Assembly (NCBI GenBank): GCA_018002295.1
Contig: JAGNGI010000005.1
Coordinates: 1 to 63,595 of the forward strand
Origin: Fidelibacterota bacterium
GTDB lineage: Bacteria > Fidelibacterota > UBA2242
DNA: 63,595 nt
Reading direction: 5' to 3'
Within the stretch, counting starts at the first letter, position 1; the number at the start of each line of letters is the position of its first letter. This document shows, one piece after another, positions 4,891 to 41,066 of the stretch. Under the pieces are notes generated by a model that saw only the letters and a list, made by a program, of their open reading frames with translations, was not told the DNA's origin and did not search any database. The translations under genes and the position numbers were made by a program.

Positions 4891-4897
4891 ATAAGAA

Positions 4898-9624: not shown

Positions 9625-9653
9625 AATCTACAAGTATTTTTTGATGAGGTCAA
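9625..9653 (-). promoter_or_regulatory. Sigma70-like promoter for the WecA-WcaJ fusion gene
   Basis: Minus strand TTGACC (9653-9648), 17 nt spacer, TAGATT (9630-9625). Confidence 0.55.
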
Positions 9654-9666
9654 GTAAAAAATATTT

Positions 9667-11476: not shown

Positions 11477-12440
11477 TATAGATTCCAGCCTTATAAAATG
11501 AAAGATTTTCTTTAATCCAATTTATTGTCTCAGTTAATCCTTGAATGAGCTCATATCGAGGACGCCAGGGAGTCTTGGTAGTAATTTTTGTATTATCACA
11601 CCGTAAATGTTCTACTTCGCTATCTTCCGGTCGAATTCGTTGTTCTTCGAGATTTATAGGTTTTGATAAATTCATAATTTCCATAATTGATTTGGCTAAA
11701 TCACCAATACTAATTTCTTGGTTCATACCAATATTGGTTACTTCGCCAAAAAGTTCTTGGCTCTCGAATATTTTAATAAATCCTGCAACAGTATCTTTGA
11801 CATAAGTTAGATCACGTGTAGGTGATAGATTCCCTAATTTCAGAGTCTGACATTCGGATAGGATTTGAGTAACGATGGTTGGAATAACTGCACGTGCAGA
11901 TTGACGGGGGCCGTAAGTATTAAATGGACGAACAATTTTAACCGGTAGGCCAAACGAACGGTAATAGCTAATTGCCAGTTGATCTGCTGCGATTTTTGTT
12001 GCTGAATAAGGTGATTGCCCAACTAATGGGTGCTTTTCGTCAATTGGAATGTATTGGGCAGTGCCATAAGTTTCACTCGTGGAAGTCATTAGAATTTGTT
12101 CAACTCCAGATTCTTTAGTTGATTGCAGAATATTATAGGCACCTTCCACGTTGGTTTTGATATAAGCAAGTGGAGAAATATATGAATAAGGAATCCCAAT
12201 CAGCGCAGCCAAATGAAAAACAACCTTACAACCTTTCACTGCGTTATAAACAGAATCATAATCCCGAATATCACCAGTTATGACCTCAATATCTCTTTTT
12301 ATGGGCAATGTATCTAACCAGCCCCAACGGTTATTAGAATTATAGCGCACAAATGCTCGGACTTCAAACCCCGAAGCAGCTAAATATTCAGTCAGATGCG
12401 AACCAATAAATCCACCTGCTCCTGTTACTAATACTTTCAA
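11469..12440 (-). CDS. legB: LegB-type NAD-dependent nucleotide-sugar 4,6-dehydratase
   Basis: VTGAGGFIGSHL, FVRYNSNNRWGWLD, HLAALIGIPYSY, TSTSETYG, SPYSATK, RPFNTYGPRQSARAVIPT. Confidence 0.82.
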   Translation of the reverse strand: MKVLVTGAGGFIGSHLTEYLAASGFEVRAFVRYNSNNRWGWLDTLPIKRDIEVITGDIRDYDSVYNAVKGCKVVFHLAALIGIPYSYISPLAYIKTNVEGAYNILQSTKESGVEQILMTSTSETYGTAQYIPIDEKHPLVGQSPYSATKIAADQLAISYYRSFGLPVKIVRPFNTYGPRQSARAVIPTIVTQILSECQTLKLGNLSPTRDLTYVKDTVAGFIKIFESQELFGEVTNIGMNQEISIGDLAKSIMEIMNLSKPINLEEQRIRPEDSEVEHLRCDNTKITTKTPWRPRYELIQGLTETINWIKENLSFYKAGIYNV

Positions 12441-12517
12441 TACTACCTCAAATAAATCTTCTTATATTTTTTCCTATGATTAATAACAAAATAAATCTTC
12501 TATTAGTAATCATAAAT

Positions 12518-13681
12518 TTAGGATAATATTTCTTGATAGGAATGAAATAAATTTGCTTTGTTTTTTATTAAAAAATCTTCTATGCGATTGATATAATTCT
12601 GATTTATTTCTGCATGAGTTGGTAGGTTTACGATATGCCTCGCAATTTTTTCTGCTATTGGACAAGCGCCCCATTGGTAATTAAAAATTTCCAAGTTGTC
12701 CAAAATTGGGTGGATAGGCGAAAGAAACCAATCCCCTAGCTCAATCTTCATTTTCTCAGCTTGATGGAAAAAAGCCGGTCGGTCTTTTACTAACAATGGA
12801 AACTTGAGAAAAGTATGAATAGCATATTCCGGTTCAAAAGGTGGCTCAATATTCATACTTTTTAAAATATCTATATAATTCTGAGCAACTTTCCTGCGAT
12901 GTTGAAGTATTGCTGTAAAATTAGACAATTCCCTTTCACCACGTCGGATTTGCGTTTTCGAAATCCCTTTTTCAAATCCATCTGGCATCTGAGGAAAACC
13001 TAATTCTTCTCTTTGTGAAGATCCCAAAATTAAATTATTTTTACTCAGCCAGCGGTAAATTTTAATTGCTGGCCAATAGAGGTTAGTGCTGAGATTATCT
13101 CGAATAAAGAGGAGAACTTTCAAAGTAATTTCGTCTTTGAAGGAAGGTCGTGTATAATTAATTTCCATTTCCCTTAATTTTCTAGCAATTAAAGGATTAC
13201 GGGATACCGCAAAACCACCAATTCCGGTTGAAAAAGGTTTGTTCCATTGAGTACTGAAAAAAGAAACATCAGCAACTGTTCCATTAGGTTTACCCTTATA
13301 ATAACCGCCAAAACCATGGGCACAATCTTCAATAACGGAGAGGTTGTATTTACGAGCAATTTCAAAAATTGCATCAAGGTCAGGGGCCAAACCATAGGTA
13401 TTTTGGGCTAATATGGCTTTAGTTCGAGGCGTTATTTTACTTTCTATGGCGGATACATCAATTGTATATGTCAATGGATTAATTTCTACATAAACAGGTA
13501 TAGCACCTAAATACATTATGGGATTGACCACTACAATGCAAGTATATCCCGGTAGAATAATCTCATCGCCAGACTCAATGCCAATTGCTTTTAGTATCGC
13601 ATATAGAGCCACACGACCTTTCCAGAAAAAGGTAACTTGACTGGGTTCAACACCTAAAAATTCGGCTATAATTTCACGCAT
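12518..13681 (-). CDS. DegT/DnrJ/EryC1/StrS-family aminotransferase
   Basis: KGRVALYAILKA, LPGYTCIVV, IEDCAHG, SFFSTQWNKP (PLP Lys), VNLPTH. Confidence 0.82.
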   Translation of the reverse strand: MREIIAEFLGVEPSQVTFFWKGRVALYAILKAIGIESGDEIILPGYTCIVVVNPIMYLGAIPVYVEINPLTYTIDVSAIESKITPRTKAILAQNTYGLAPDLDAIFEIARKYNLSVIEDCAHGFGGYYKGKPNGTVADVSFFSTQWNKPFSTGIGGFAVSRNPLIARKLREMEINYTRPSFKDEITLKVLLFIRDNLSTNLYWPAIKIYRWLSKNNLILGSSQREELGFPQMPDGFEKGISKTQIRRGERELSNFTAILQHRRKVAQNYIDILKSMNIEPPFEPEYAIHTFLKFPLLVKDRPAFFHQAEKMKIELGDWFLSPIHPILDNLEIFNYQWGACPIAEKIARHIVNLPTHAEINQNYINRIEDFLIKNKANLFHSYQEILS

Positions 13682-13706
13682 TATTTACTTCTAATTCTAT
13701 TCAATT

Positions 13707-14732
13707 TTAAGAACGTGTTAATTGACTAAACTTAGCTATATTCAACTTTTTAAAAACAATAAAATCTAATAATCCACGTAAAAATCCATAACCATAACCT
13801 AAATGAAAAGCTGCTAATACAAATGGTATAATTGGGATATATTTCCAATTCTGTGGCTTTTTACATATGCTTAAAGTTGCAATTAAATTAAATATCAAGT
13901 AAGTGCCAATCATTAAAATAAAAAATAATCTGCTAATTTTAAATTTAATTCCAAGTAATAAACTAATAGTTAAAAATACTAAAAAAGTTCCTGGTATGAT
14001 ATGTCTGATAGAAGCCGGTATTTTATGCTTCTGAATCACTCTTACTTTCCAGTAGCCATATTGCATATATTGTTTAAATAGAGATCTAATAGATGATCTT
14101 GGATAATACCAGGATTTTATACTTGAGGATTGCCAGATTTTGCCACCAGACCGAATAATACGGAGATTTAGTTCATCATCTTGATTACGAACAAGTTCTT
14201 CATCAAATAGTCCAATTTTTTCCAATGTTGACTTTTTCCAACAGCCAAGATAAACCGAATCAATATATCCGGTATATTTATGATTATGTGAACCTGCCCC
14301 TCCTGAAGAAAACTTAGATTGAAATGCTTTGGCAATAGCCTTTTGGACATAGGATTCTCCGGATGCAACCCAAGGCCCTCCCACATTGTCTGCACCAGTT
14401 TGGTTTAAAATTTTAATACACTGGGTTACATAATCCTCGGCGTATTTTGTATGTACATCCATTCTGATTATTATATCACCTGTAGCTGCTTTGATGCCGA
14501 GATTTAATGCTGAAGGTACGATCTTTTTAGGATTGTCTAATAATTTGATGAAATTATATTTATCTATATAATTTTTAATAATAAATCTTGTTCTATCCGT
14601 GCTCATACCATCAATAATTAATACTTCTATTAAATTTTTGGGATAATCCTGATTAATAATTGAATTAAGACAACTAGCTATATTTTTTTCTTCATTTCTA
14701 CAAGGGACTAAAATCGTAACTTTATTACTCAT
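13707..14732 (-). CDS. Glycosyltransferase family 2 with C-terminal TM helices
   Basis: VPCRNEEKNI, DGMSTDRT, RMDVH (DxH), FDEELVRNQDDELN. Confidence 0.88.
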   Translation of the reverse strand: MSNKVTILVPCRNEEKNIASCLNSIINQDYPKNLIEVLIIDGMSTDRTRFIIKNYIDKYNFIKLLDNPKKIVPSALNLGIKAATGDIIIRMDVHTKYAEDYVTQCIKILNQTGADNVGGPWVASGESYVQKAIAKAFQSKFSSGGAGSHNHKYTGYIDSVYLGCWKKSTLEKIGLFDEELVRNQDDELNLRIIRSGGKIWQSSSIKSWYYPRSSIRSLFKQYMQYGYWKVRVIQKHKIPASIRHIIPGTFLVFLTISLLLGIKFKISRLFFILMIGTYLIFNLIATLSICKKPQNWKYIPIIPFVLAAFHLGYGYGFLRGLLDFIVFKKLNIAKFSQLTRS

Positions 14733-14995
14733 GTTTTATTCAATAATATAGAAAATAATTGCCAAAAAGAGTCTATCATAAATATCGAAAACCATCCAAT
14801 GCTAAGGTATTTTTTAATTTAATTTCCTACTTAAGAATACATTCGATTCTTGTAATAATTTCTGATCCCCATTTAAAATAAAGCGCCAAACACAGGTCAG
14901 GAATTAACAATTCCTTGTAAAAATACCAATCAGCGCTATTATTGATATAGAGTTCAATATTGTTTTGCTTTAAAAACTGACTACCAATCATTTGA

Positions 14996-16093
14996 TCACC
15001 CTCTATTTTCTTCAATTATCTGGTATAGGTATTTTTCCATTAATTTTAAATTTTCTTGCCAATCATAATTTTTCGATACAAATTTACGCCCTTCTAGTCC
15101 AATTTTTTTTCTTAATTCTTTATCAATAACGAGATGATACATTTTTTCAGATAAATCTTGTTCATTACCAGGTTTTACCAAATAGCCAGTTTTACCATCG
15201 ATAACAACTTCAGGCAAGCCTCCAATATTGGAGGCAATCACCGGCACTTCACAGGCAGAAGCTTCAATCGCGGCTACTCCAAAACTTTCAGACATGCTGG
15301 GAAAACAAGCAATATCGAACTGATTTAAATAATAAGGCACATCGGTATTTTTCACACGTCCTATTATAGACACCTGTTTATCTAAACCGAGTTGGGTTAC
15401 AAGGGATTGCACCACGTATTTTTGCGGTCCGTCGCCAATAATAACTAATCGCAGACGGTCAGCAATTTCTGTTCGGCCTTCTAACTTTAGTCGTTCAAGT
15501 AATAACTTGAAAGCTTTTATTAGGCACGTTTGACCATACTTCTCATCAATAGTTTTAATAATTCCAATAGTAATATTTTGAGAATCTTGTTTTCTATTTG
15601 GCTTGAATATATCAAGATCGACACCAAATGGAGTAACAAATATTTCGTAAGGTGATTGATACAGCTTTAGTACTTGTTCACGCATGATTTTACTGGTTGA
15701 GGCAATTCTCGTAGCCGCCTGCAAATTTCTCCGCACAATATTATACATTATCCTGTTTTGATATGGTACATCAAAAACATCCGAACCCCAGACGGAAAGC
15801 AAAGTCGGTCGAAAATTTATTAATCTGGATAATGTTCCGTAACCACTGGCATAATGTGTATTAAGTATATCGGGTTGGATTTGGTTTATCAGTTTCCGTG
15901 TCCAAAGCCAATTTAGATAATACCCAGCTGATGGTCGGAAAGGGAGGACAAACAAGCTCACTTTTGGATTGATTTCATCTATTCCGGGTTTATCTGCACT
16001 AAGAAGATAAACTTCATGATCAATTCCACTTAAACCATTAGCCCATTTGACTATATGGATATTCGACGCATTTCCGATTATACAAATTCGCAA
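14996..16093 (-). CDS. Glycosyltransferase family 4 (GT-B)
   Basis: THYASGYG, LSVWGSDVF, ESFGVAAIEASAC (Ex7E), SNIGGLPEVV. Confidence 0.9.
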   Translation of the reverse strand: MRICIIGNASNIHIVKWANGLSGIDHEVYLLSADKPGIDEINPKVSLFVLPFRPSAGYYLNWLWTRKLINQIQPDILNTHYASGYGTLSRLINFRPTLLSVWGSDVFDVPYQNRIMYNIVRRNLQAATRIASTSKIMREQVLKLYQSPYEIFVTPFGVDLDIFKPNRKQDSQNITIGIIKTIDEKYGQTCLIKAFKLLLERLKLEGRTEIADRLRLVIIGDGPQKYVVQSLVTQLGLDKQVSIIGRVKNTDVPYYLNQFDIACFPSMSESFGVAAIEASACEVPVIASNIGGLPEVVIDGKTGYLVKPGNEQDLSEKMYHLVIDKELRKKIGLEGRKFVSKNYDWQENLKLMEKYLYQIIEENRG

Positions 16094-16102
16094 GATCTTA
16101 TC

Positions 16103-17419
16103 CTAAAAGTGCTCTGAAACAAAGTAATTATTAGTATTGTTATTTTGCCAACTTCTATTTTCTAATTTTAAATAATTTAATACCCGGAATATAGTTATCA
16201 TTATTAGATAGATGAAAATGAACTCATATAAAGATAGAAGTGTTAAATACTGAACAAAAAATGTCAGGGTTGCTAAAGTCATACAAAAGATATTTATAAA
16301 GGTCAAATAAATATTAGGTTGCCTTCTGTTTTGAAAAAATACCCAATAATAAATAACTGAAAGTAAGACTGTCATAAACAAGGTAAACATCCAACCTCCA
16401 ATGAGGTAAAACACACCATAAGCAGTTCCAGTATTAGAAAAAGTAATATTAGAAATCGGTAAAAAACCAATGCTAACATCTTGCCCGGGATCAGACCTCA
16501 AAGGATTACCAATGATAACATTTTTTATATTATAAAAAACGCTCAACATCGTCGAATCCGGTTTAATAGCAGGATAATTGAGCCACTCATCTAAATTAAT
16601 TGGAGAAGAAGTGATATAAAGCATAGTATGTTCGAGAAGAAATTTCCAAACTCCTTCTGAAGTAAATGAAAATGTTTTCCAGGCAATTGTCAATAAAACC
16701 CAAAATAAGTTCATAATAAATAAAACTATTATTCCTGTCCATAAAAGAGCTTTCCATTGTTTCGACGGTGGTATTTCATTTATTTTATAAATAAATAACA
16801 TAATTACAACCCATAATAGATGGTATTTAACCTGCATTGCGGCTAGTGCAATAAACAATCCTACTAATGTTAAGAATGACAGTACTTTCCTTTTCGAGAA
16901 CCGGAAAAAGATCCCAAGTAAAATAAAACATACTTTGGCCACCTCGCCCATATGAGCTGCAAATCCATGCGTCATCTTATCTTCAAATCGTGGATCGCCT
17001 AAAAAAGCGAAACCACCGAACTGATTAAATAAACTAATTACTTTTTTTAAAATTACTCCAATCACAATCCATGAGATAATTATTACCAGCCATTCATAAT
17101 CAGAATATTCCATAATTAGGTTATCTAAACGACCACTATTTTGATTTATCGTTTTCTCTGTTTTATAAAAATGAGAAAATAACTGGCCTATAATCCATAA
17201 TATCATTAGGTTGCATAGGACAAAAAGCTGAGCTCGCATGGTAAATGGTTTAAATCCAATATAAATTAAAATATAATTAACTAGTACACTAATTATTGCA
17301 AAAGGCCAGGCAGTTACAATAAAAGGTGTAACAAGAGTATTTAACCGCCTTTTCTCAAAAGTAGTTAGGGCAAAGACTATTGAAAAAAAGGTTAGACTCG
17401 TAATCTGATCTAAGTTCAA
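16103..17419 (-). CDS. wzy: Putative polysaccharide polymerase (Wzy-like)
   Basis: About 10-11 hydrophobic segments with a large loop (NTGTAYG), AT-rich, located between GT genes and next to the flippase. Confidence 0.65.
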   Translation of the reverse strand: MNLDQITSLTFFSIVFALTTFEKRRLNTLVTPFIVTAWPFAIISVLVNYILIYIGFKPFTMRAQLFVLCNLMILWIIGQLFSHFYKTEKTINQNSGRLDNLIMEYSDYEWLVIIISWIVIGVILKKVISLFNQFGGFAFLGDPRFEDKMTHGFAAHMGEVAKVCFILLGIFFRFSKRKVLSFLTLVGLFIALAAMQVKYHLLWVVIMLFIYKINEIPPSKQWKALLWTGIIVLFIMNLFWVLLTIAWKTFSFTSEGVWKFLLEHTMLYITSSPINLDEWLNYPAIKPDSTMLSVFYNIKNVIIGNPLRSDPGQDVSIGFLPISNITFSNTGTAYGVFYLIGGWMFTLFMTVLLSVIYYWVFFQNRRQPNIYLTFINIFCMTLATLTFFVQYLTLLSLYEFIFIYLIMITIFRVLNYLKLENRSWQNNNTNNYFVSEHF

Positions 17420-17422
17420 TTT

Positions 17423-18481
17423 TTATTCCTGATCAATAATAGATTGAACTACATTTTTGTCTACCTTTGTAAGGGGAGCACTGATTTTTCTGGCTGAATA
17501 TATCGTATCCCAGGCTTCCTTAAATGATACTCGATATTGAAGTATTAAAAGAAGGAAAAAATAACTTAACGCAGGTCCAAGCCATAACCGCCATTTTACT
17601 GGCGATAAATATTTTTTCATATTAACTATCCTGTTAACTGCAAAAAGTAATACTTTTTTACTGGCTTTTTGATTTAAATATTCATCCGATGAAATACCGA
17701 TTTTATGATAGACTTTTGTATTGTTAATACAGGCCTTATTTATATTCAATTTTTTAAGCTTCATACTAAACTCAAAATCTTCTTCGCCGTAAAAAAAATC
17801 TTCTGATAAAGCGCCGTACTTATCAATAATTTCACACCTAATACAAAGAGCGCAACCATTGAGAAAAGCGACTTCTCGTACGTTCGAATTACTAAGTTTC
17901 TTATAATATTTTGTTTGTCCCCATGGCCAGATCATTCCACCAGCATTAGCGATCTTATTCGGTTGATAATAAGAGTAGATAGTTGCCTGTGATGCTCCAA
18001 TCGAAAAATCGGATTGCATTATGGAAATAATTTCATTAATTGTATGAGGCTCGATTACCGTATCATTATTTAAAAGAAAAACATATTGACTTTGATATAT
18101 TTTCAAAGCCAAATCTATAGCGATATTGTTAGCAATTGCAAATCCATAGTTCTCATCATTTACTAAAAATAAGACCTTAGGTTTTTTATCTTTTAAAGGT
18201 GTAATTTTCAATTTTCGATTATGTATATCAACAGCTATTAAATCAATCGGTTTTTTTTCAAGGGGGAAAACTAAATCCGGAAAATTAGTGTTGATTACAT
18301 CTTCCAGCCCAATTTTAGCCCATGTTTGAATTTTTGATACTGAGTTATTATCCGAGCCATTATCAACCAGAATAATATTGAAGTTCGGATAATCCGATTT
18401 CAATACCGACTCCAGGCACTCAATCGTATCAGCCCATTTATTCCAGTTCAAGATTATGATAGATACGTGCGGATAACTCAT
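17423..18481 (-). CDS. Glycosyltransferase family 2 (WbbL-like)
   Basis: IILNWNKWADTIECLES, DNGS, NYGFAIANN, LLNNDT, FFYGEEDFEFS. Start ATG at 18481 overlaps the wzx stop (ATGA). Confidence 0.85.
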   Translation of the reverse strand: MSYPHVSIIILNWNKWADTIECLESVLKSDYPNFNIILVDNGSDNNSVSKIQTWAKIGLEDVINTNFPDLVFPLEKKPIDLIAVDIHNRKLKITPLKDKKPKVLFLVNDENYGFAIANNIAIDLALKIYQSQYVFLLNNDTVIEPHTINEIISIMQSDFSIGASQATIYSYYQPNKIANAGGMIWPWGQTKYYKKLSNSNVREVAFLNGCALCIRCEIIDKYGALSEDFFYGEEDFEFSMKLKKLNINKACINNTKVYHKIGISSDEYLNQKASKKVLLFAVNRIVNMKKYLSPVKWRLWLGPALSYFFLLLILQYRVSFKEAWDTIYSARKISAPLTKVDKNVVQSIIDQE

Positions 18482-19785
18482 AATTCTAAGGGATTTGTTG
18501 ACCATTTATATTTATTATGTTGAATATGGTAAACCAAAAGCATAAATAGAATAAATTCGGAAAGCAATAGAGCAGTTGCAGCACCAATTTCGCTGATTAA
18601 ATGACAAAGAATTGCGCAAATTATAGTATTCAATATTCCCACAATCATCACGCTCTTTAAAAATTCTTTCTTCATATCGTAGTTTGTCATAAAAATTATT
18701 CCAATACAATAATTCAAACCCCCGAATAAAATTACAAAAGAGGCGATTCTAATCACTCGTACCATTGCCAGATTAACTGACCCATTTAAAAGATAAGCAA
18801 TTTTCCCTGCAAAGATAAATAGTAATATTGAGATAATACATCCAATAAAACCCATAATCGTAATCATTCTACTGATATATCTTATGGATTTTTCCGGTTC
18901 TTCAATTTTCTTTCGGGAGATAAAAGGATACAAGGTTTGAGTAAGAGGTGATAAGGTACTTTGGATTGCTTTGACTATCTTTTCACCGGCACTGTATATT
19001 CCCACGCTTATATCTGATGAAAAGATTCCCAGAATAATAACATTAGTATTGCGATATAAATTCATAGCAATATTTGAGAGAAAAATGTGCCAACCTTCTT
19101 TTAAATATCTCTTCAAAATATCCTTATTCGGTTTGAGAAAACGGATGATGAATTTTTTCCTTAAAATGATAATGCTAACAATCCCCGCCAGAAAGGTAGT
19201 CGCCGAATTAAATATCGGCACTAAAACAAAATCGTTTTCATTTTTAATAAAAATGATAATTAAGAGTATATATAATAATTTTGATATAGAAATAATTACG
19301 TTGACATATTTGACTTTTTCCACTCCAATGTAAAACCAGGTAAATAAAAATATATTCGCTAAGATATAGCCGTAGGAAAATAGATAAATGGATCTATAAT
19401 CGTGTATTTTAGGAATCAAAAAACATAATATCCCTAATAGTATAAAACAAATACTGAATAGTATAATTTGAATTATTAAAACATTCGATACTATTTCTGA
19501 TTGTTTCCTACTATTATTCTGACTCTGGGCAATCATCTGGATTCCCGTTATCCCAAATCCATACTCTACGACTATTTGAAAATAATAGACGAGAGCCATT
19601 GCAAAGCTGATGATACCAAATTTTGCTACTCCAATATACCTCAAGAGATACGGAACAGTAATTAAAGGTGCTAAATAAATAATAACCTGATATATGCCAA
19701 ATTGAGCAAAATTAGCAAATAAACTTTTACCTTCTTTATTAGAGAAAAATCCCTTTAACTCATTTAGGGTGGGGAATTGGTTCAT
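18478..19785 (-). CDS. wzx: Polysaccharide flippase Wzx
   Basis: About 12 TM; LITVPYLLRYIGVAKFG, IVEYGFGITG, VGIYSAGEKI motifs. Confidence 0.88.
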   Translation of the reverse strand: MNQFPTLNELKGFFSNKEGKSLFANFAQFGIYQVIIYLAPLITVPYLLRYIGVAKFGIISFAMALVYYFQIVVEYGFGITGIQMIAQSQNNSRKQSEIVSNVLIIQIILFSICFILLGILCFLIPKIHDYRSIYLFSYGYILANIFLFTWFYIGVEKVKYVNVIISISKLLYILLIIIFIKNENDFVLVPIFNSATTFLAGIVSIIILRKKFIIRFLKPNKDILKRYLKEGWHIFLSNIAMNLYRNTNVIILGIFSSDISVGIYSAGEKIVKAIQSTLSPLTQTLYPFISRKKIEEPEKSIRYISRMITIMGFIGCIISILLFIFAGKIAYLLNGSVNLAMVRVIRIASFVILFGGLNYCIGIIFMTNYDMKKEFLKSVMIVGILNTIICAILCHLISEIGAATALLLSEFILFMLLVYHIQHNKYKWSTNPLEL

Positions 19786-20752
19786 CAGGCTTGAGTTCTT
19801 TGCGAAAATTATTAATAATTAAAATGAGAGCATTTACACATATTTGTAAAATTAGAAAGAGCCCTCCCAGACTGATCATAGTTAGTAATCTTTTAGGTCT
19901 ACTCTTCAAATAAGGTGCTTGGGCTATATCAAGGACTTTAACTTCTGCCAGGCTTGGGATTGACTTTAATGTATAAATTTCTTTTTGCTGTTTAAGTTCG
20001 ATCCAGATAGTAGAATACAATTCCAGATCCCTTTTTAATGCCAATTCTTTGATCTGGTTAGCCGGCTCAGCAATTGATTTTACCTGCTCTAAAAATGTTT
20101 GTAAATTTTTTTCTGCAATTTTGATACTGTCTTGGGTATTTTTGATGTGATCTTCAATGTATAATAATTGTTGACGATTTTCATGCTGGATTTGGGTTAC
20201 GACAATTTCATTTAATAGTTCTACCATCCTATTGGCTACATTAGCCGCATAAAAAGGATCGGTGAGTGTCACCGATAACTTAGTAACATTACTTTCATTA
20301 TTGATATTTACATAAATAACATCTTTGAGTAATTTTTTCAATGCCTTGTCAATTTTTTCTCTTTCATTTTTGGCTTTGATGTCAAGCATATCAATTAACT
20401 TTTTTCGATAAATTGTACCGCTGGAATCAACTCCTTCAAATTCTTCAAATAGGATTGTATCTAAAACTTTTCTTGAGGTAAGGATTTCTTTATACATCTC
20501 AGGACTCTGGAGTGTACTTTGAGGTAAATTTATTCCAGCTAAATTTGCCAAAGCACCCATCGAGCTGCCTATACCTGATGATAAATCCTGGCTGGGAGGT
20601 AAAATTGACACTGTAGCGGTATATTTTTTCTTCATTCCAAAAAATACGATTACAAAAACTAGGATAGCTCCAAGTAGTAAAATTAATAGGTTTGTGACGC
20701 GATGTTTAAAAATAAAATAGAGAAGCGGATGTTCTTTTTTTATAGGTGCCAC
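19760..20752 (-). CDS. wzz: Chain-length determinant Wzz-like polysaccharide co-polymerase
   Basis: Two terminal TM helices, YTATVSILPP, coiled-coil periplasmic region, proline-rich VLDIAQAPYLKSRPKR before TM2; no kinase domain. Confidence 0.75.
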   Translation of the reverse strand: MAPIKKEHPLLYFIFKHRVTNLLILLLGAILVFVIVFFGMKKKYTATVSILPPSQDLSSGIGSSMGALANLAGINLPQSTLQSPEMYKEILTSRKVLDTILFEEFEGVDSSGTIYRKKLIDMLDIKAKNEREKIDKALKKLLKDVIYVNINNESNVTKLSVTLTDPFYAANVANRMVELLNEIVVTQIQHENRQQLLYIEDHIKNTQDSIKIAEKNLQTFLEQVKSIAEPANQIKELALKRDLELYSTIWIELKQQKEIYTLKSIPSLAEVKVLDIAQAPYLKSRPKRLLTMISLGGLFLILQICVNALILIINNFRKELKPDEPIPHPK

Positions 20753-20790
20753 GTAATTCTCCTGTTATTTATGAAAATTTTAAATTTCAT

Positions 20791-22029
20791 TTACTTCATT
20801 GCGGCAATAAAAGTTAATAAAATAGTTGCAATGGAAGTAAATATTTCCAGAACTGATAAATCTCCGAATATTGTACTCTTAGAACTACGAGGGATAATTA
20901 TAACATCACCTCGTTTAAGAGTTGCAGATTTACCTGGCTCGGTACTTCCATCCAAGTGACGTATGTAAACCTTATCGATATCTCCTTCATAGGTGTTTCC
21001 ACCAGCCATATTAATATAATCCAAATATGAATAGCCCGGATAAAAATAAAAACTACCTGGAGATTGGACGAATCCATTAACTGATATTCCTCTTTCTGAG
21101 AGAATGTCAATTGCATCACCTGGCTTTAATGGAGTGGAGAAGAAATCTCGCGGATATACCGTCATTACTAGCTGGTGATCAGCCTCTTTTCGCGTAATTG
21201 TTACATTTTCCAAGTCAGCGTTTTCAATAAACTGAGCTTGGCGTCGTAGATAATAGCCTAAGGATTCATTTTCTTGGATAATATCATAGCCACTTCCATA
21301 CACTGCGCCTCGAATAACGATAGCTTCTTTATCCGGATCTCCAAATGGGACGAATATTCTATCGCCCTCTAAAAAAGTAGGGTTATGCTTCAGGTCTCCC
21401 TCGAGTTTATAATTAAAGTAATTTATTGTGTCAATTCTGCCATCGTTTCTAGTTATCTGGATATTAAATTCCTTGGCAAATTGGTCAAATCCCTCAGCCA
21501 GCTCAATTATTTCATTTAATCTTGTAACCGCAGTAACATCATAGAACCCTGGTTGAAACACGGCGCCGGCAATTTGAATCTTGAAAGTGCGTAAGTTTAC
21601 CAATGCTACATCGACTTTGGCACTTGGATAGACTTCATTGATTTTCTTTTTACATAGTTCGATGGCATCTTTCAGAATTAAACCATTTACATTAATTTTT
21701 CCAACCGATGGTATTAATAAATCCCCAGTAGGAGTTATAGCTAATTCTATGTTTATATTTTCAGTGATAATTATATCAATCCCAAATATATCACCAGGGC
21801 CTACGATATATTCTTCGGGTGAAACTGCTTTATCAAGAGCAATTAGTTCTTGCATTTTTGAAACTTCTTTTGCTTTTTCTTTTAAAGTAGTTTTTTCTTT
21901 TTCAGTCTCTTGTTCAAACATTTTCCCATAGGATCTATACGATTTTTGAGATTCGGAGGATCTATATTGTTGCCCTAATGAAATATCGAATAAAATAGCC
22001 ACCATTAGAATAACAAATGCTTTTTTCAT
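20791..22029 (-). CDS. SLBB-domain polysaccharide export protein
   Basis: Signal peptide, YIVGPGD, IPSVGKINV.GL, repeated beta-grasp SLBB units (IAGAVFQPG, VNGFVQSPG..AGG). Confidence 0.78.
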   Translation of the reverse strand: MKKAFVILMVAILFDISLGQQYRSSESQKSYRSYGKMFEQETEKEKTTLKEKAKEVSKMQELIALDKAVSPEEYIVGPGDIFGIDIIITENINIELAITPTGDLLIPSVGKINVNGLILKDAIELCKKKINEVYPSAKVDVALVNLRTFKIQIAGAVFQPGFYDVTAVTRLNEIIELAEGFDQFAKEFNIQITRNDGRIDTINYFNYKLEGDLKHNPTFLEGDRIFVPFGDPDKEAIVIRGAVYGSGYDIIQENESLGYYLRRQAQFIENADLENVTITRKEADHQLVMTVYPRDFFSTPLKPGDAIDILSERGISVNGFVQSPGSFYFYPGYSYLDYINMAGGNTYEGDIDKVYIRHLDGSTEPGKSATLKRGDVIIIPRSSKSTIFGDLSVLEIFTSIATILLTFIAAMK

Positions 22030-34902: not shown

Positions 34903-35433
34903 TTATTCTAAAAATAAATATGGCCGCCACTCGTCAATTGGTGATTCGGCAAATCGTTGTAATGTATGTATCTTGTGAGGCTTAATGGGTTTGGTTCGTA
35001 ATACCATACCAGATTCAATTAAACTGCGGTTTCCTTTTTTGTTATTGCAAGTGATACAGGCGGTAATAAGATTGGTCCAGGTATCTTGACCGCCGTGAAC
35101 TTTGGGAATAATGTGGTCTATAGTTAGTGGTACATTGCGGGCTCCGCAATACTGGCAGGTAAAATTATCGCGCCGGAAAATATTGGCTTTATTAAGAACC
35201 GCTTCCCAGTGTTGAACTTTGATGTATTTGTGAATCCTGATAACGGAAGGGATCTCAAAATTTTGCTGAACAGTCTTTAACATTTGATGATCGAATGCCT
35301 TGACCAGGCTGGCTTTATCCTCCAGAATAAGCACGATCGCCCGTTTGACATCGCAGATATGCAACGGTTCATAGGTCTGGTTTAAAACCAGGACGTTCCG
35401 ATTGATAATATTTGTTTTCGATTCCATATTCAC
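34903..35433 (-). CDS. HNH endonuclease (McrA-like conserved family)
   Basis: VLVLNQTYEPL, PSVIR, RDNFTCQYCG..LTIDHIIPK..GG..W.NL..AC..CN..KG. Confidence 0.9.
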   Translation of the reverse strand: MNMESKTNIINRNVLVLNQTYEPLHICDVKRAIVLILEDKASLVKAFDHQMLKTVQQNFEIPSVIRIHKYIKVQHWEAVLNKANIFRRDNFTCQYCGARNVPLTIDHIIPKVHGGQDTWTNLITACITCNNKKGNRSLIESGMVLRTKPIKPHKIHTLQRFAESPIDEWRPYLFLE

Positions 35434-35643: not shown

Positions 35644-36108
35644 CTACATTATCATTCTAATAAATTTTTCTTCTATTCGCAATTGCATTGCGGCAAAGCT
35701 TTCAATTTTCAAAGTATGCTCGAAACATCCATTACGTAAACAACCGATTATTTGTCCTTCGTTAGGTAGTTCCATCGCAAAAGTCGGAGCGGAACAATTG
35801 CGGCAGAGCTCTTGTTCGCGTCGCAAAGATATCCCGCAATGGGGACAGATGATATCGACTATCTCGCCTTTTGGTACCTCGACTTCTGAAATGTTTTCGT
35901 AACTGCCAAATTCTGGGTCAAGATATAACATACCTTCTTTATCTTTCCATCTAATTTTCACTTCAATTGTTTTCAGCCCCTTAATTTTTATTTTTTCTGT
36001 CATTAAATCACAGCCATTGGGGCAGTGAGCATTCTGAATATCAACTATTCGGGGTTGATGAAAAAGGTTTGTATTGTTTAGATCAACGTCCTTTAGTCGT
36101 TTTCCCAT
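35644..36108 (-). CDS. Cys-rich hypothetical protein, probable metal binding
   Basis: HCPNGC, CPHC, CRNC and C...GC motifs. ATG 36108 has an AGGA RBS; the ORF track starts at TTG 36132. Confidence 0.65.
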   Translation of the reverse strand: MGKRLKDVDLNNTNLFHQPRIVDIQNAHCPNGCDLMTEKIKIKGLKTIEVKIRWKDKEGMLYLDPEFGSYENISEVEVPKGEIVDIICPHCGISLRREQELCRNCSAPTFAMELPNEGQIIGCLRNGCFEHTLKIESFAAMQLRIEEKFIRMIM

Positions 36109-36281
36109 TGTTAATCCTATTCTAAATCTCAAATAATCTTGGCAAAATTTACAAATATTTTACTTAATGCCTACAACTGGTTTAGAACTAATTAATATTT
36201 TTTTGCCAAGCTCATAACTATGAATTACGCAAATAGTTTTTTGTTCTTTAAATGAATGTAAGTCGGTATTTATAGATAATT

Positions 36282-36315: not shown

Positions 36316-36323
36316 TGATGTGG
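36316..36323 (+). repeat. Left att-like direct repeat TGATGTGG
   Basis: Identical to 40989-40996; lies between the displaced terminator and the island interior. Confidence 0.6.
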
Positions 36324-36416
36324 TGTTTGCTGAACGATGTCAGAACTTTCTTTGAGCAAAATCCAGAGGATTTTGCTGAATGACCCGCCCAGCGTTTCCG
36401 CTCGCTTGACGGCGAG

Positions 36417-36502
36417 CAAAACAGAAAAATTTTATTAACATTATTTAGTTGCGCGCCTCCCAAATTTTTTTCAATTAAGGAAAAGAAAATTTTTCTGTTT
36501 TG
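36417..36502. repeat. 17-bp perfect inverted repeat inside a structured non-coding region
   Basis: CAAAACAGAAAAATTTT (36417-36433) and AAAATTTTTCTGTTTTG (36486-36502), 52-nt spacer. Confidence 0.8.
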
Positions 36503-36642
36503 ATATTCTGCTAACGCAGAATTACAGAAACGCTTTCCCGCCCCCGGACGAGGCGAGCGGGCAAAAATTCATTGGTGGGAATAACATTCAGACCCCTTTT
36601 TTTCCTGTCCACTAGAAGCCCACGGCGGTTTTTTCGGCGGGC

Positions 36643-37146
36643 TTAATTATTGTTCCTAATCTTTATCGCTTCTTCAACCGCATCAGCGATGTATTGTGAA
36701 ATCCAATCGTATCTCTCTTTACTATTTTGTCCGGTAGGATTATAACATTTAACTATTGCAGATAATTTTTTACCACTATCGCCATAACCTATATAATCAA
36801 ATGGATTTTCGCCTTTATCGGAAATATACCCTTCACTATTTTTTAGCCCATGAATATAAATGCCAACGACGCCCATACCTTCATTCCACGACTTTATTAT
36901 TTCGTAATTTATCCATTTTCTGTTTGCGGTTTTACTTCCAACAAGCACAATAGTGCATGACCTATATTTCATTTGTTCATTTATCCACCTCTTAATGGCG
37001 TCATCACCAGCACTTATAATTCGTTCCCAATCATTATCGGGGGCGGGTTTATTTCCTTCTACAACTCCTATATTGCGAACCTGGGATGCCAGCCAACAAT
37101 CGGGTCTGTAATGAAAACTATAAAATACTTGTCTTTTTGTTGTCAT
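36643..37146 (-). CDS. TIR-domain protein (MTH538/DUF1863, ThsB-like)
   Basis: KRQVFYSFHY, SCTIVLVGSKTANRKWINYEIIKS with the catalytic Glu, GVVGIYIHGLKN, GENPF. Confidence 0.85.
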   Translation of the reverse strand: MTTKRQVFYSFHYRPDCWLASQVRNIGVVEGNKPAPDNDWERIISAGDDAIKRWINEQMKYRSCTIVLVGSKTANRKWINYEIIKSWNEGMGVVGIYIHGLKNSEGYISDKGENPFDYIGYGDSGKKLSAIVKCYNPTGQNSKERYDWISQYIADAVEEAIKIRNNN

Positions 37147-37150
37147 ATCT

Positions 37151-37552
37151 TTACTTAAACAAGGAATAAATTAAAGTTGTAATGCAGAGTAGTGATAAAT
37201 AAAAAATCAAAAGCGTCTGGGAAAACATTGATGGCAACCAGCAATTTTTTCTATTTTTCTTAAATTCATTCGTATCCATAGAAAAATCAATGTCTTTCAC
37301 ATCGAGCACCCTAACGTGGTCGTATAAAGCCCTAAATAATCTCTCTTGCGAAAGAAAATATCCATCTAAAACCCAAAATATTATTATAAGAAAATAGGCA
37401 ATCAAAATATAATTTTGGTTTGTATCTTTGGTAAACAACACAAAAAGTCCAGTTATCAAAGTAATCACCCAACCTCTAATGAAAAATAAATTTCCCGCCA
37501 TTCGGTTAATTGCACCCTGAATAAACTCTAAATGTTGTTGCTTATTTTCCAT
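37151..37552 (-). CDS. Small 3-TM membrane protein, putative TIR-signal effector
   Basis: HLEFIQGAINRMAGNLFFIRGW, two TM helices, polar linker DGYFLSQERLFRALYD, C-terminal TM; 4 nt from the TIR gene. Confidence 0.7.
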   Translation of the reverse strand: MENKQQHLEFIQGAINRMAGNLFFIRGWVITLITGLFVLFTKDTNQNYILIAYFLIIIFWVLDGYFLSQERLFRALYDHVRVLDVKDIDFSMDTNEFKKNRKNCWLPSMFSQTLLIFYLSLLCITTLIYSLFK

Positions 37553-37561
37553 TTTTAATTA

Positions 37562-39571
37562 TTAAATACTCTCATCAACGATCTTTACTGTTCTTTTCCT
37601 TAATTCAGCTTTCTCGTTAATAATATCTCTGGTCTCATTAGTAATTTTTTGAATCTCATTTTGATCATTACTTATAGGCAGAATAATTTCACTCAATCTA
37701 TTTCCAATAGTTGAAATTGTTGCCTGTACAAATGTTTTAGAATCTATTTGCTTTCTTACAATTTTACTATTCAAGAGATAAAACAAATAATACGGATCAA
37801 TAAATTCTGTATTTAGTACCCTGATTTTTCTTAAATGACTTTGAATAATTATCTTTAAATCTAATTTTGTAACCATGGCAGTACGTCCAATCAAAAATGT
37901 TCCGTCATTTACGAATAAAATGTCTTTCTCTTGAATATCTTGAGATTTCTTGTATTGATTGTATATATCATCAGAAACGGCTTTTACTGGATCAAATTTA
38001 ATTTCCCAATTAACAATGTCACTAGTTCTTACAAAAGGTATCTCTCCTGTTCCATAGAATTGCGAACCTATTTCGTTACCTCTTCTAATTTGCAAAATCC
38101 CTTTGTCTATTAACTCTCCAATTGAGATTAACGAATATTTGCCACTATTTTTTAATACCTCTAACTCCTTGCGGATTTCAGGATTATAGTACTCAGGAAT
38201 AAAAATATGATCGTTTAAGTCTGAATAAGCGATACGAAATCCTAAATGTTCATCTGTAATTTTATTTTTGTTGTTATATTCATTAAAATTCTTTGCAATA
38301 GCAGGAAGGTCATCATCTAAGATTTTACTACTGTTGGTTTTATCTATTTTATAGACGGGCTTTCCGTTTTTATTATGACCAACATTATAGGCAATTGCCA
38401 TAAAAATTGATTTTGGCTTCTCGGTAGTTTTTTTCAAAAATAAAACACTAGTTTTAGTATGTGTGCTTGGTTGAAAAGTTTCTTGAGATAAACTTACAAT
38501 TCCAATAACTGAGGCAACGCTTGAGATATATTCCCAGATATATCTATCAGACGGATTACCAAAAATACCTTCTGGTAAAACAATGCCAAGGCGACCGCCC
38601 TCGCGGAGCAATTGGAGGCATCTTTCAATAAATAAGACTTGGGGGGATTGCTTATCAAGTAATTTTTTTGTTTGTAGCCATTTTTCGCCATTTTCCCACA
38701 TGTGGCCTAGTTGATATTGACTCAATAATTCCCTCCCAACAACAGGAATTTTTGCCCCAAAAGGAGGATTTGTAAGAACAACATCAAAAGTGCCAAGCTG
38801 GATATTTTCTTTGGTATCTTTGCTCCATTTAATCGGAACCTCTAAGCTGTTTTCGCAATAAATATGAAATTCATGGTCGCCAAGTAATGAAAGGTAAATT
38901 TTTGCTATTTTTGCCAAGAAAGCATCTTTATCAATTCCAGTAAGATAAAAATTTTTCTTATTATTGGAAATAAAATGTCTTAATGTATAGGCGAGAAATC
39001 CCCCACTACCACAGGCAGGGTCAATAATCCGCTCCCCTTCTTGAGGAGACAAAACATCAATCATCATTTGCACAACATTTCTTGGTGTGAAAAATTGCCC
39101 TTCTCCACCTCTAAAAGAAGTGCCTATCAACTCTTCAAAGGCATCACCAATAACATCTCTGTCTGCATTTATGATTGAATAATCTTCTAATTTTGAAACT
39201 ATAAAAGAAAGTTCTTCAGCTTTTATTTCTATTTTTTCATTTTGCTCAAAAATATCAGGATAATTATTTTTGACTTTCTCAAATAAATCATCAATTCTTC
39301 TTTGAAACAAATCATAATTTTCATCGGGGCGGTTAGAAAATTCAACTATGTTTCTGCTATTCTTTTCATCATAAATTTTACAAAAAAGAAGCCGCATTAT
39401 ATTTTGTGCGATCTTTTCATCCCTTGTAATGCCAGTTACATTGCCAGCAAAATAGTCCCGAATTTCTCGAAATATCAACTTAAGATTGTTTATTGGTTTC
39501 AAGTCAACAATCTTGATCATTTTTTTAACTCTTGTTTTTTCGGCTAAATCAAATAAATATAAAGTTTCCAT
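37562..39571 (-). CDS. N6-adenine DNA methyltransferase (HsdM-like) fused to a C-terminal HsdS-like target recognition domain
   Basis: LLFCKIYDE, GQFFTPRNVV, motif I IDPACGSGGFL, motif IV TNPPFG, GRLGIVLPEG; C-terminal TRD-like IPFVRTSDI...GTFLIGRTA...QATISTI..RL.EI.LPI. Confidence 0.88.
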   Translation of the reverse strand: METLYLFDLAEKTRVKKMIKIVDLKPINNLKLIFREIRDYFAGNVTGITRDEKIAQNIMRLLFCKIYDEKNSRNIVEFSNRPDENYDLFQRRIDDLFEKVKNNYPDIFEQNEKIEIKAEELSFIVSKLEDYSIINADRDVIGDAFEELIGTSFRGGEGQFFTPRNVVQMMIDVLSPQEGERIIDPACGSGGFLAYTLRHFISNNKKNFYLTGIDKDAFLAKIAKIYLSLLGDHEFHIYCENSLEVPIKWSKDTKENIQLGTFDVVLTNPPFGAKIPVVGRELLSQYQLGHMWENGEKWLQTKKLLDKQSPQVLFIERCLQLLREGGRLGIVLPEGIFGNPSDRYIWEYISSVASVIGIVSLSQETFQPSTHTKTSVLFLKKTTEKPKSIFMAIAYNVGHNKNGKPVYKIDKTNSSKILDDDLPAIAKNFNEYNNKNKITDEHLGFRIAYSDLNDHIFIPEYYNPEIRKELEVLKNSGKYSLISIGELIDKGILQIRRGNEIGSQFYGTGEIPFVRTSDIVNWEIKFDPVKAVSDDIYNQYKKSQDIQEKDILFVNDGTFLIGRTAMVTKLDLKIIIQSHLRKIRVLNTEFIDPYYLFYLLNSKIVRKQIDSKTFVQATISTIGNRLSEIILPISNDQNEIQKITNETRDIINEKAELRKRTVKIVDESI

Positions 39572-39576
39572 AAAAA

Positions 39577-40584
39577 TTATTTACATCTGTTATGTGCACG
39601 CACTACAAATTCCATGAAGTCTAGAGTTTCATCTAACGAGTGGTCGGTCATCGAAACATTGCACCACCTATGACCATACCTAACATTACTTGAATTATGC
39701 TTAATTTGCATTTCAACAAGAGGATTCACATGCATTATTTGAATGCTTGAATCGTCTCCTTCTTCCTTTTTGGAAGAACGCCAAGCTGGTTGCCATGTTG
39801 TACCTCTCTCAGATTTTCTAAATGCCTCTAAACCTTTTGAAATATTAAGAAGACATACTGGACATTTAGTAATATCCTCTTTTTTCGTAGGGAAAATATT
39901 CGTCGGTAATGAAATTTTGTTATTAATATTTTGTTTTTCAAGTATTTGCTTGATTTTGGTATAAAGCGAATCAAAATCAGCTCCGTATAAATCAACAGCT
40001 AAAGCAAGTCCTAAAATAGCATAGGTTTCAACCGAGTCCCACCAATTACACGCTTCAAGGGCAGGAATCACGCACGAATTTTGTGTCCATAAAGTATCTG
40101 ACCAATGTTTTAGAGTGTTAATGTGTGGATACCAATGTTCAGGAAGGGCGACAAATCTTTCTGGCATTTCATGTACTTTATCTGAGGGGAATTTAAGCTC
40201 CTTACCTTTCGCGTCTTTAACTACGAAAACTAAAATCTGACCGTCGTCTTGCCCGCCAATTTCTATTCTTTCTATTTTTCTTGCAAAACCTGGTTTATTT
40301 TCTGCAACAATTAAAGGATGCCATCTTAAATTTCTATTTGAAAAAGGGGCTTTGCCTTGCCGACCTCTTGTGCATATAGCATCTCTCTGTATTTTTCCGC
40401 CACCTAATCCCAAACCACCATCTCTTGTATAACTAATTTTACCGTATTCCTTTTCGAAGTCTTTTTTGGCTTCTTCATCGGGAATAGAATCGGAAATCGT
40501 TTTTGATATTGAATCGCATAATTCAATAGCCTTACGATCTAAATCTGTTAGAAAACTCGCACTTATTGTTCTTCCTGTGGCCAT
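39577..40584 (-). CDS. Putative restriction endonuclease with a C-terminal His-Me finger (HNH); resembles the BstXI family
   Basis: CPVC...MHVNPL...HNSSNVRYGHRWCN..MTDHSLDETLDFM; directly upstream of the methyltransferase (5 nt gap). The BstXI resemblance is from memory of the family pattern. Confidence 0.7.
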   Translation of the reverse strand: MATGRTISASFLTDLDRKAIELCDSISKTISDSIPDEEAKKDFEKEYGKISYTRDGGLGLGGGKIQRDAICTRGRQGKAPFSNRNLRWHPLIVAENKPGFARKIERIEIGGQDDGQILVFVVKDAKGKELKFPSDKVHEMPERFVALPEHWYPHINTLKHWSDTLWTQNSCVIPALEACNWWDSVETYAILGLALAVDLYGADFDSLYTKIKQILEKQNINNKISLPTNIFPTKKEDITKCPVCLLNISKGLEAFRKSERGTTWQPAWRSSKKEEGDDSSIQIMHVNPLVEMQIKHNSSNVRYGHRWCNVSMTDHSLDETLDFMEFVVRAHNRCK

Positions 40585-40588
40585 GTGT

Positions 40589-40783
40589 TTATTTTATTAA
40601 TTCCTCAATCGGCACATTTAGTGCCTTCGCAATTTTTTCAAGCGTCTCAATCGTCGGGTTATGTTGCTTGCCTGCCTCTATGTAAATAATAGTATTATTG
40701 GAAATATCGGCAAGTCGAGCCAGTTTTTCTTGCGACAAACCTAGTTTTTCTCTCAGCAGCTTTATTTTACTTGATTCTACCAT
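40589..40783 (-). CDS. XRE-family HTH regulator, putative RM controller (C) protein
   Basis: IKLLREKLGLSQEKLARLADISNNTIIYIEAGK.NPTIETLEKIAKAL; 64 aa; first gene of the operon, 4 nt before the endonuclease. Confidence 0.85.
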   Translation of the reverse strand: MVESSKIKLLREKLGLSQEKLARLADISNNTIIYIEAGKQHNPTIETLEKIAKALNVPIEELIK

Positions 40784-40820
40784 ATTATAATAGCAGTATT
40801 AAATTGTGTTATAAGAATTG

Positions 40821-40848
40821 TATACTAAATATTTTTATCCATAGTATA
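40821..40848. promoter_or_regulatory. Candidate operator (inverted repeat) upstream of the XRE gene
   Basis: TATACTA (40821-40827), 14 nt, TAGTATA (40842-40848), 37 nt upstream of the XRE start. Confidence 0.4.
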
Positions 40849-40924
40849 ATATTACCAAAATATTTGGAAATAGTAAAGAACAAAGGGAGTTCCTTAATCT
40901 TTTCTGTGCTGGGAGGGTGGGGCA

Positions 40925-40978
40925 AGGAAAAGAAAGAAAGGCCCGCCGAAGCGAGGGGCGAAGCCCCGAGTGAGGCAG
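40925..40978 (-). terminator. Island-encoded GC-rich hairpin plus U-rich tract immediately downstream of tRNA-Ala
   Basis: Minus strand GCC...GGGGC-TTC-GCCCC...GGCGGGC followed by CTTTCTTTCTTTT. Confidence 0.5.
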
Positions 40979-40988
40979 CTAATCAATA

Positions 40989-40993
40989 TGATG

Positions 40994-40996
<3 letters not shown>
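40989..40996 (+). repeat. Right att-like direct repeat TGATGTGG
   Basis: Overlaps the last three nucleotides of the tRNA-Ala gene; identical to 36316-36323. Confidence 0.6.

Positions 40997-41066
<70 letters not shown>

Follow-up and report, generated by a model that had tools for sequence, protein, structure and literature searches.

Several described systems come close to the locus reported here. Thoeris is divided into types by the domains of its ThsA protein (SIR2-SLOG; transmembrane (TM) helices plus Macro; SLOG-NucS; caspase); in the type II form a WxxxE motif is required for defence, and ThsA needs membrane helices (10.64898/2026.01.22.701046). Integron cassettes that join a ThsB homologue to a membrane protein (Tragantia / brc22-brc23) confer phage resistance (10.1101/2024.07.02.601719). 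A further pair, PDC-M50, is listed as cassette CAS_00164 in supplement file 8 of Payne et al. (10.1101/2024.01.29.577857), who find embedded genes to be co-oriented with their host in 96.7% of cases and document embedded backups. Here we describe a PDC-M50 pair, consisting of a small membrane protein (the TM protein) and a ThsB-type TIR protein, that closes a co-oriented run of five genes opened by a type II restriction-modification (RM) system with its controller (C) gene. The locus lies in a contig of 63,595 nt from a Fidelibacterota bacterium of the UBA2242 lineage (JAGNGI010000005.1, GenBank assembly GCA_018002295.1), the whole of which we call the window.

The five genes (an XRE-type helix-turn-helix (HTH) gene, nuclease, methylase, TM and TIR) are all on the minus strand, with gaps of 4, 5, 9 and 4 nt in the list of open reading frames (ORFs), exactly as a first-pass annotation of this DNA had it. 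That annotation proposed looking for the same order elsewhere, and it is present in at least six independent metagenome assemblies and in comparison locus L088 (79-92% protein identity; L numbers denote comparison loci throughout), so the arrangement is not an assembly accident. We think it fairly probable that the locus is a mobile composite island, in which a C-controlled type II RM system is combined with a minimal, Thoeris-like abortive module that relies on read-through for its expression; the two would act by independent mechanisms.

The membrane-TIR pair and its restriction-modification partners

The window genes match the PDC-M50 profiles over positions 1-130 of 134 (A, 2.1e-49) and 2-160 of 162 (B, 1.8e-64), and they are adjacent, as the definition of that pair asks. 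Among structures in the PDB, the TIR protein finds the ThsB entries 9b7d and 6lhy at 1e-24, and the closest solved TIR is 8wcf (E 1.5e-37); its WxxxE motif (W78, E82) is invariant in 21 sequences. The TIR family has 3,837 matches, with 65-89% identity across Patescibacteria, Nitrospirota, Pseudomonadota and archaea, and no homologue at E <= 1e-20 was present in 50,697 phage records. The TM protein is modelled by AlphaFold2 (AF2) as three long hydrophobic helices, with a predicted local distance difference test score (pLDDT) of 86, and alignment of its family shows the invariant motif FWxLDGYFLSQERLFR; comparison of the model with the PDB by Foldseek gave nothing better than E = 1. A profile search of the full library placed 4,741 representative clusters in the TM family, nearly all of them stand-alone proteins of 130-145 aa. 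In rare fusions another domain is placed before the TM module, SLOG (LD_cluster2) in P0419 and the 8xMP 'octameric membrane protein' domain in P0445, which hints at the wiring of this module in other systems. A literature search on 'PDC-M50' and on PDB 8wcf returned no paper describing a function, and none in the library naming PDC-M50.

We recovered 80 genome loci with the TIR family, annotated their neighbours by Pfam and labelled methylase genes by iterated profile search. The TIR gene adjoins a TM gene in 58 of the 80, and in 17 of these 58 a single TM gene is accompanied by two or three TIR-type genes. We read the pair as Thoeris-like because of its ThsB kinship and WxxxE motif, this grammar of one TM gene to one to three TIR genes, the SLOG-TM fusion, the membrane helices of type II ThsA, and the protection against phages given by ThsB integron cassettes. 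The extra genes include short TIR-like ones, of 124 aa between TM and TIR in L007, L009, L010, L016 and L024, and of ~225 aa in L006, L022, L034 and L035; they match ThsB_TIR at 2e-5 and 2e-7.

The link drawn in the first-pass annotation between the TIR arm and the RM enzyme reflects a real and recurrent association. A methylase gene lies within 3 kb (<=3 kb) of the pair in 34/58 TM-containing loci, as against 0/22 loci in which this TIR family is paired with something else (ThsA SIR2-STALD, or TIR_2 with SLOG); the Fisher test on these counts (p = 3.5e-7) overstates independence, the comparison loci being mostly metagenome bins and phylogenetically clustered, though they include more than 10 distinct RM architectures. 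Methylase genes number 1.26 per 10 kb inside this 3-kb range and 0.22 outside it. Chance adjacency in a defence island was considered and rejected, being contradicted by this difference between inner and outer density together with the control loci that have no TM gene.

The RM partners are unrelated to one another, with gamma, beta, D12 and C5 methylases in systems of types I, II and III, and none of the 80 TIR loci has a homologue of the window nuclease. TM and TIR come last after controller, R.TdeIII and a beta-class methylase (L002), after controller, beta-class methylase and nuclease (L011), after type III Mod and Res (L015, L020), and after R.HaeIII and a C5 methylase (L021). L009, L016 and L024 have one or two methylases (D12 and/or beta-class) followed by TM, a short TIR-like gene and TIR, while L003 has D12 methylases with R.AlwI. 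Two orders are seen with Hsd genes: HsdM, HsdS, TM, TIR with HsdR further on (L039, L072, and L046 with an extra gene between), and HsdM, TIR, TM, HsdS, HsdR and a YgjP-like gene (L025, L027, L034, L035). The TIR closest to that of the window (89%) belongs to L087, ordered MerR-type gene, TM, TIR, methylase, R.CfrBI. Junctions of the pair to the upstream gene range from -53 to +31 nt, i.e. stop-to-start or overlapping, and the TM start codon is the exact point at which similarity between loci sets in, the DNA before it not being conserved.

Relationships among the TIRs do not follow those among the RM systems. Between L088 and the window, controller, nuclease and methylase are 89-92% identical, TM 82% and TIR 79%. 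Nearest-neighbour TIRs flank different RM types, the window pairing with L087, L088 with L024, and the type I-nested L035 with the type II L002. This discordance shows that the two modules have histories of their own and have repeatedly been recombined. Comparison of the window with L088, L011 and L002 shows what is kept, namely the controller gene with its promoter, and TM-TIR with the right end of the island, while the R-M genes in between are swapped. Locus L142 has the two modules as neighbours again, in the reverse order: a TIR gene 88% identical to that of the window (1-381) is followed, 1.3 kb after its end, by a controller-nuclease-methylase set homologous to the RM family of the window (1682-4900).

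The pair is also found as an integron cassette. In L040, L042, L048, L049, L069 and L073 it has a GTTAGGC-type core site before it and an attC site (CCTAAC...GTTAGGC) behind it. On plasmid pHRM2a it sits in a co-directional array beside lnu(F) and a HigBA pair; a Ligilactobacillus plasmid carries it 1-2 kb from a SinI-type RM system. Being an integron cassette in some genomes and joined stop-to-start to the preceding gene in others, the pair is most simply taken as promoterless and reliant on upstream transcription.

The type II system and the island that carries it

A second survey, of the RM family, recovered 80 metagenome loci with the nuclease family, of which 66 have enough upstream sequence and 30 enough downstream sequence for neighbours to be read. 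The controller-like character given to the HTH gene in the first-pass annotation holds: of 66 related RM loci free of TIR genes, 18 have a homologue immediately before the nuclease, and inverted repeats lie over the promoter. Further homologues, 56-89% identical, occur in L002, L011, L020 and L088. Control of the TIR pair by the HTH protein, instead of control of the RM genes, was considered and rejected on account of the homologues that precede the nuclease in RM loci devoid of TM-TIR. The operon promoter predicted by scanning has -35 TTTCCA and -10 TATACT (40870-40843). Over its -10 element lies the candidate operator, which is degenerate by comparison with the homologous promoter regions of L088 and L011, where arms of 17-20 nt, 90-94% complementary, are spaced 27-29 nt.

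The nuclease, ORF335, has no Pfam match and was matched by two PADLOC type II nuclease models (best 1e-5). Its C-terminus shows a beta-beta-alpha-metal (HNH-like) motif, with residues 295-328 matching DraIII (PDB 4l0k, E 0.008); the AF2 model has strand-strand-helix at 279-330, and is poor (pLDDT 62) and unfit for a fold search. All 548 homologues in the family are unnamed, and a methylase homologue follows the nuclease in 67/80 related loci. We consider it reasonable to call ORF335 an endonuclease, from weak similarity and context, i.e. the DraIII motif, the PADLOC matches and co-inheritance with the methylase. The methylase bears the motifs DPACGSGGF and NPPF and a Specificity_I domain (4e-15, residues 485-663); its relatives in the PDB are BsaXI and type I M subunits. 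With catalytic motifs and target recognition of its own in the methylase, and a co-inherited endonuclease gene adjacent to it, the C-R-M part is, judged by its genes, a self-sufficient type II RM system. Our guess is that it recognizes an interrupted palindrome, given the single specificity domain and the site of DraIII.

The first-pass annotation treated the five genes as one operon, and comparison with empty sites does show a tightly packed unit, gained and present or absent as a single island (Table 1). The host belongs to Candidatus Marinimicrobia (Neomarinimicrobiota) and comes from activated sludge or digesters. A neighbouring housekeeping gene, looked up by exact protein match, led to conspecific Marinimicrobia contigs with and without the island, whose flanks are 100% identical; L175 and L168 are empty. 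L175 matches the window at 100% to 40989 and resumes at 36323, 8 nt being common to both flanks. Island G+C is 0.30-0.38, lower than that of the flanks (0.40-0.46). Its 8-bp direct repeats at both ends, its position at a tRNA 3' end and the presence/absence polymorphism place it among tRNA-targeted islands. A related island in L011 directly follows another tRNA, tRNA-Ala(TGC).

Table 1. Features of the island locus, in window coordinates.
Feature	Coordinates	Strand	Evidence
Inserted island, 4,665 bp	36324-40988	-	comparison with empty sites L175, L168; composition profile; ORF list
tRNA-Ala(GGC), island inserted at its 3' end	40993-41066	-	ARAGORN; Rfam tRNA 58.8 bits
Left 8-bp direct repeat CCACATCA, overlaps tRNA 3' end (target duplication or att core)	40989-40996	-	empty-site locus L175
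Conserved non-coding left end: left inverted-repeat remnant and operon promoter region	40784-40950	-	78-90% DNA identity to L011, L002, L088 despite different RM genes
Candidate operator, C-box-like inverted repeat over -10 element	40816-40853	-	12-nt arms, 83% complementary
C (controller)-type HTH, 64 aa	40589-40783	-	HTH_3 2.6e-19; PADLOC Control_protein 4e-11
Putative type II restriction endonuclease (ORF335), 335 aa	39577-40584	-	PADLOC REase_II 1e-5; DraIII 4l0k E 0.008
Gamma-class N6-adenine DNA methyltransferase with one fused type-I-S-like target recognition domain, 669 aa	37562-39571	-	Pfam N6_Mtase 1e-39; PADLOC MTase_II 4e-85
PDC-M50A membrane protein, 133 aa, three long helices; proposed effector	37151-37552	-	PADLOC PDC-M50A 2e-49
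PDC-M50B / ThsB-type TIR, 167 aa; proposed sensor and signal producer	36643-37146	-	ThsB_TIR 1.5e-26; PADLOC ThsB1 1.4e-67; PDC-M50B 2e-64
Right flanking inverted repeat, G+C-rich, begins at TIR stop codon	36516-36657	-	L088 has same sequence inverted at both ends
Conserved 48-nt right-end motif (GGATTTTGCTCAAAGAAAGTTC...ACACCAC), ends in right 8-bp repeat copy (36316-36323)	36320-36367	-	78-81% identical in L011, L002, L014

Domain search found no integrase or transposase among the five ORFs that fill the island. In L088, the closest relative having all five genes, the unit lies between inverted repeats of ~135 nt, of which the window retains the right copy and a left remnant, and L014 has inverted copies of ~200 nt around its own island (1-230 and 4440-4660); the repeats of these two loci suggest mobilization in trans. 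A stretch of ~140 nt ahead of the HTH gene is conserved as DNA in L011 and L002, as is the 48-nt right-end motif, and the motif occurs once in the window, with 0 occurrences expected by chance. Neither a tRNA-fragment repeat longer than 8 bp at the island ends nor, by eye and unscored, an obvious mutual inverted repeat of the extreme termini was found; likewise by eye, no attC-like site was recognized downstream of the window TIR gene. The only Rfam match in the island, non-coding ends included, was the tRNA.

We note some side observations on the island and its surroundings: (i) At the empty site of strain GCA_033810335.1 (L168:12296-12890, equivalent to the window junction 40989/36323) there are three tandem units of ~185-205 nt, each starting with a tRNA-like 'ctgtagctcaa...' segment and an internal insert and finishing with a tRNA-Ala 3' fragment and the downstream hairpin. 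They could have been left by successive rounds of integration and excision, or they could form a family of tRNA-like repeats. (ii) Island-free strains (L168:4040-6210, L174:2882-5052, L175:135-2305) hold a different RM-like insert of three genes between HemN-like and TauE genes (N6_N4 methylase of 290 aa and ORFs of 330 aa and 70 aa), from which window-type strains are free. Thus conspecific strains differ in which RM island they hold. (iii) Outside the island, the window encodes a 176-aa HNH endonuclease (34903-35433) and a 162-aa zinc-ribbon protein (35644-36132); the genes are found in island-free strains too and so are not parts of the island. (iv) A polysaccharide biosynthesis cluster of low G+C (0.30-0.37) at 6921-22029, unconnected with the present finding, contains sugar transferases, DegT-type aminotransferases, GT2/GT4 glycosyltransferases and Wzx-, Wzz- and Wza-like genes, and is probably another variable region.

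Probable shared expression and rival explanations

The first-pass annotation saw no space for a promoter in the gaps, and scanning agrees: within ~440 nt upstream of the TM gene there is no sigma-70-like or Bacteroidetes-type promoter motif. No terminator-like hairpin was found between the five genes. Promoter-like matches in the region number 32, not above the expectation from shuffled sequence (23 +/- 5). Transcripts were sought in eight metatranscriptome runs (activated-sludge libraries, with contigs short, sparse, unstranded and possibly DNA-contaminated). Four of the five genes are covered in part by contigs, the exception being the controller HTH (nothing over 40589-40783); the 3' untranslated region is covered to 36384, and the R-M junction is spanned. 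One contig, X3 (36384-37090), reaches at least 260 nt past the TIR stop, through the G+C-rich right inverted repeat (region 36384-36642); the 3' end of the operon may be near the conserved 48-nt end motif instead of the TIR stop codon. Co-transcription of methylase, TM and TIR is plausible on this layout.

For a composite island of the kind we favour, the mechanism would run as follows. The TIR protein would sense infection and either use NAD+ to make a nucleotide signal or act directly on its TM partner; direct TIR-TM contact would be an alternative to signal sensing by the TM protein. The latter would be the effector, damaging the membrane. Having no promoter of its own, the cassette would depend on read-through from the gene upstream, which would belong to the RM operon in the window and most relatives and be driven by the integron promoter in others. 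Its expression would then track RM expression, and if the C protein holds the RM genes back for a time on entry of the island into a new cell, the cassette would be held back with them. The cell would gain a two-layered defence in which DNA cleavage comes first and the abortive module serves as backup. Co-transcription of the cassette, control by the C protein, signal production by TIR, the membrane-effector role of the TM protein and the anti-phage function are what we infer.

Several points weigh against this account. No significant Pfam or NCBIfam match was obtained for the TM protein, and it has no recognizable ligand-binding domain or structural relative. PDC-M50 is one of 145 phage defence candidates, none of them tested in the study that put them forward for lying inside BREX, DISARM or type I RM systems (Payne et al., 10.1101/2024.01.29.577857). 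The clustering of our comparison loci tempers the association test, and the 59% of TM-TIR loci that have a methylase gene <=3 kb away are also compatible with functional dependence on RM. None of the RNA contigs from the eight runs spans the M-TM or the TM-TIR junction. In the C-R-M gene order, the methylase usually has its own promoter inside the nuclease gene; a constitutive promoter of the methylase, instead of the C-regulated one, may therefore drive the cassette.

More tentatively, the pair may be one of a class of promoterless defence cassettes for which RM operons serve as landing sites and as platforms for expression, in the way that an integron serves its cassettes; the strong preference for RM could also mean that the trigger is a generic product of restriction. 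We regard this as possible, on balance doubtful. Such a trigger could be phage DNA after cleavage, or an anti-restriction protein that mimics DNA. If the trigger is generic, the cassette would be a universal second layer for any RM system, which would explain how one small module backs many.

It is unlikely, in our estimate, that the RM system and the pair are mere neighbours, adjacent cargo of one mobile element but transcribed and acting separately, with the tight spacing due to compaction and to selection for small islands. The separate histories of the modules would fit, as would the lack of junction-spanning RNA and the weak promoter-like matches that the scan found inside the methylase and nuclease genes. 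Against it stand the gaps of 9 and 4 nt with neither terminator nor nearby promoter motif, the recurrence of stop-to-start or overlapping junctions behind unrelated upstream genes, the integron forms, which show that the pair is viable without a promoter of its own, and the shared orientation of embedded genes in nearly all cases of Payne et al.

The first-pass annotation went further and supposed that the TIR arm monitors the RM enzyme and fires when phage anti-restriction proteins disable it, in the manner of PrrC with EcoprrI; to us this seems improbable. It has in its favour that the RM association is unusually strong and specific and is not shown by the same TIR family with other effectors, that the cassette is nested inside type I operons as prrC is, and that embedded backup systems are documented. 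However, no homologous protein is common to the partner RM systems across loci, the window nuclease included; the RM family of the window has TM-TIR downstream of the methylase in 1 of the 30 loci with enough sequence (L088) and is without it in 29; 21 of 58 TM-TIR pairs, integron cassettes among them, have no RM component within 3 kb; and TIR and RM phylogenies disagree, the nearest TIR (89%) lying beside a different RM system. Nor is a domain that would sense anti-restriction detectable in the TM or TIR protein. The TIR arm as specific guard of this RM enzyme is thus not upheld, and a specific guard of the window methylase is unlikely. Any guarding would have to sense something generic, given the unrelated partners, for which an Ocr/ArdA-type DNA mimic or uncut, unmodified foreign DNA are candidates; a trigger shared by every kind of restriction would account for the strong RM preference. 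That annotation had itself named what would count against it, homologous TIR-TM pairs that have unrelated neighbours and act independently of RM: the unrelated neighbours are found, which comes near to refuting a dedicated partnership without quite doing so.

Least probable of all, and in our opinion very much so, is an addiction module, with TM-TIR an NAD+-consuming or membrane toxin with its regulator that reinforces post-segregational killing by the RM system and has no antiviral role: the pair does ride on mobile elements, integrons and plasmids, adjoins HigBA on pHRM2a and has spread across phyla at 65-89% identity, but its close kinship in sequence and structure to Thoeris ThsB sensors, the multiple TIR genes per TM gene, as in Thoeris, the SLOG-TM fusions typical of signalling immunity, and the phage defence conferred by related ThsB and membrane-protein integron cassettes (10.1101/2024.07.02.601719) speak against it.

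The locus is a compact natural construct of 4.7 kb with exact boundaries and natural island-free strains. It bears on whether a membrane partner of 133 aa, devoid of any known sensor domain, is enough for a TIR protein to work with, on whether RM embedding means shared regulation or functional coupling, and on how such cassettes move.

Comparison with described systems

The pair was already catalogued as a candidate, and defence genes embedded in RM operons are a published theme. What is added here is the exact island with its empty site, hosts of types II and III with quantified enrichment, the discordant histories, the integron forms and the SLOG/8xMP fusions.

As in C-controlled type II RM systems, the window has a small co-oriented HTH gene directly upstream of the nuclease and inverted repeats over the promoter; it differs in that the controller is only 64 aa long and the operator is a candidate from sequence. 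ORF335 resembles DraIII (4l0k) in that its last 40 residues carry the catalytic segment HNxxNVxxxHRxCNV, but the similarity is confined to 34 residues. PrrC/EcoprrI offers an abortive module nested in an RM operon and co-oriented with it, and some relatives of our cassette are likewise nested between hsdM and hsdS/hsdR. PrrC, however, is an ABC-ATPase anticodon nuclease that is held inactive by its specific RM partner and freed by the phage peptide Stp, whereas the window proteins are unrelated to PrrC and the RM partners are interchangeable.

With PDC-M50 the agreement is closest, both window genes matching its two profile sets at full length; the published hosts are BREX, DISARM and type I systems, whereas the host in the window is a C-controlled type II system, with the pair appended at its 3' end and not nested. 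Tragantia / brc22-brc23 is by its description also a compact promoterless cassette of a ThsB-like and a membrane protein, beside a type II RM system, but its ThsB gene comes first and the partner is of ~300 aa with a Deva-like fold. Like Thoeris, the window family has a ThsB-type TIR with WxxxE and one non-TIR partner for one to three TIR genes, and the partner's location in the membrane recalls type II in particular; unlike in Thoeris, that partner has only 133 aa and is without SIR2-SLOG, Macro, SLOG-NucS or caspase. Since it has none of the domains that define ThsA, we do not file the pair under Thoeris types I-IV, though it may work alike.

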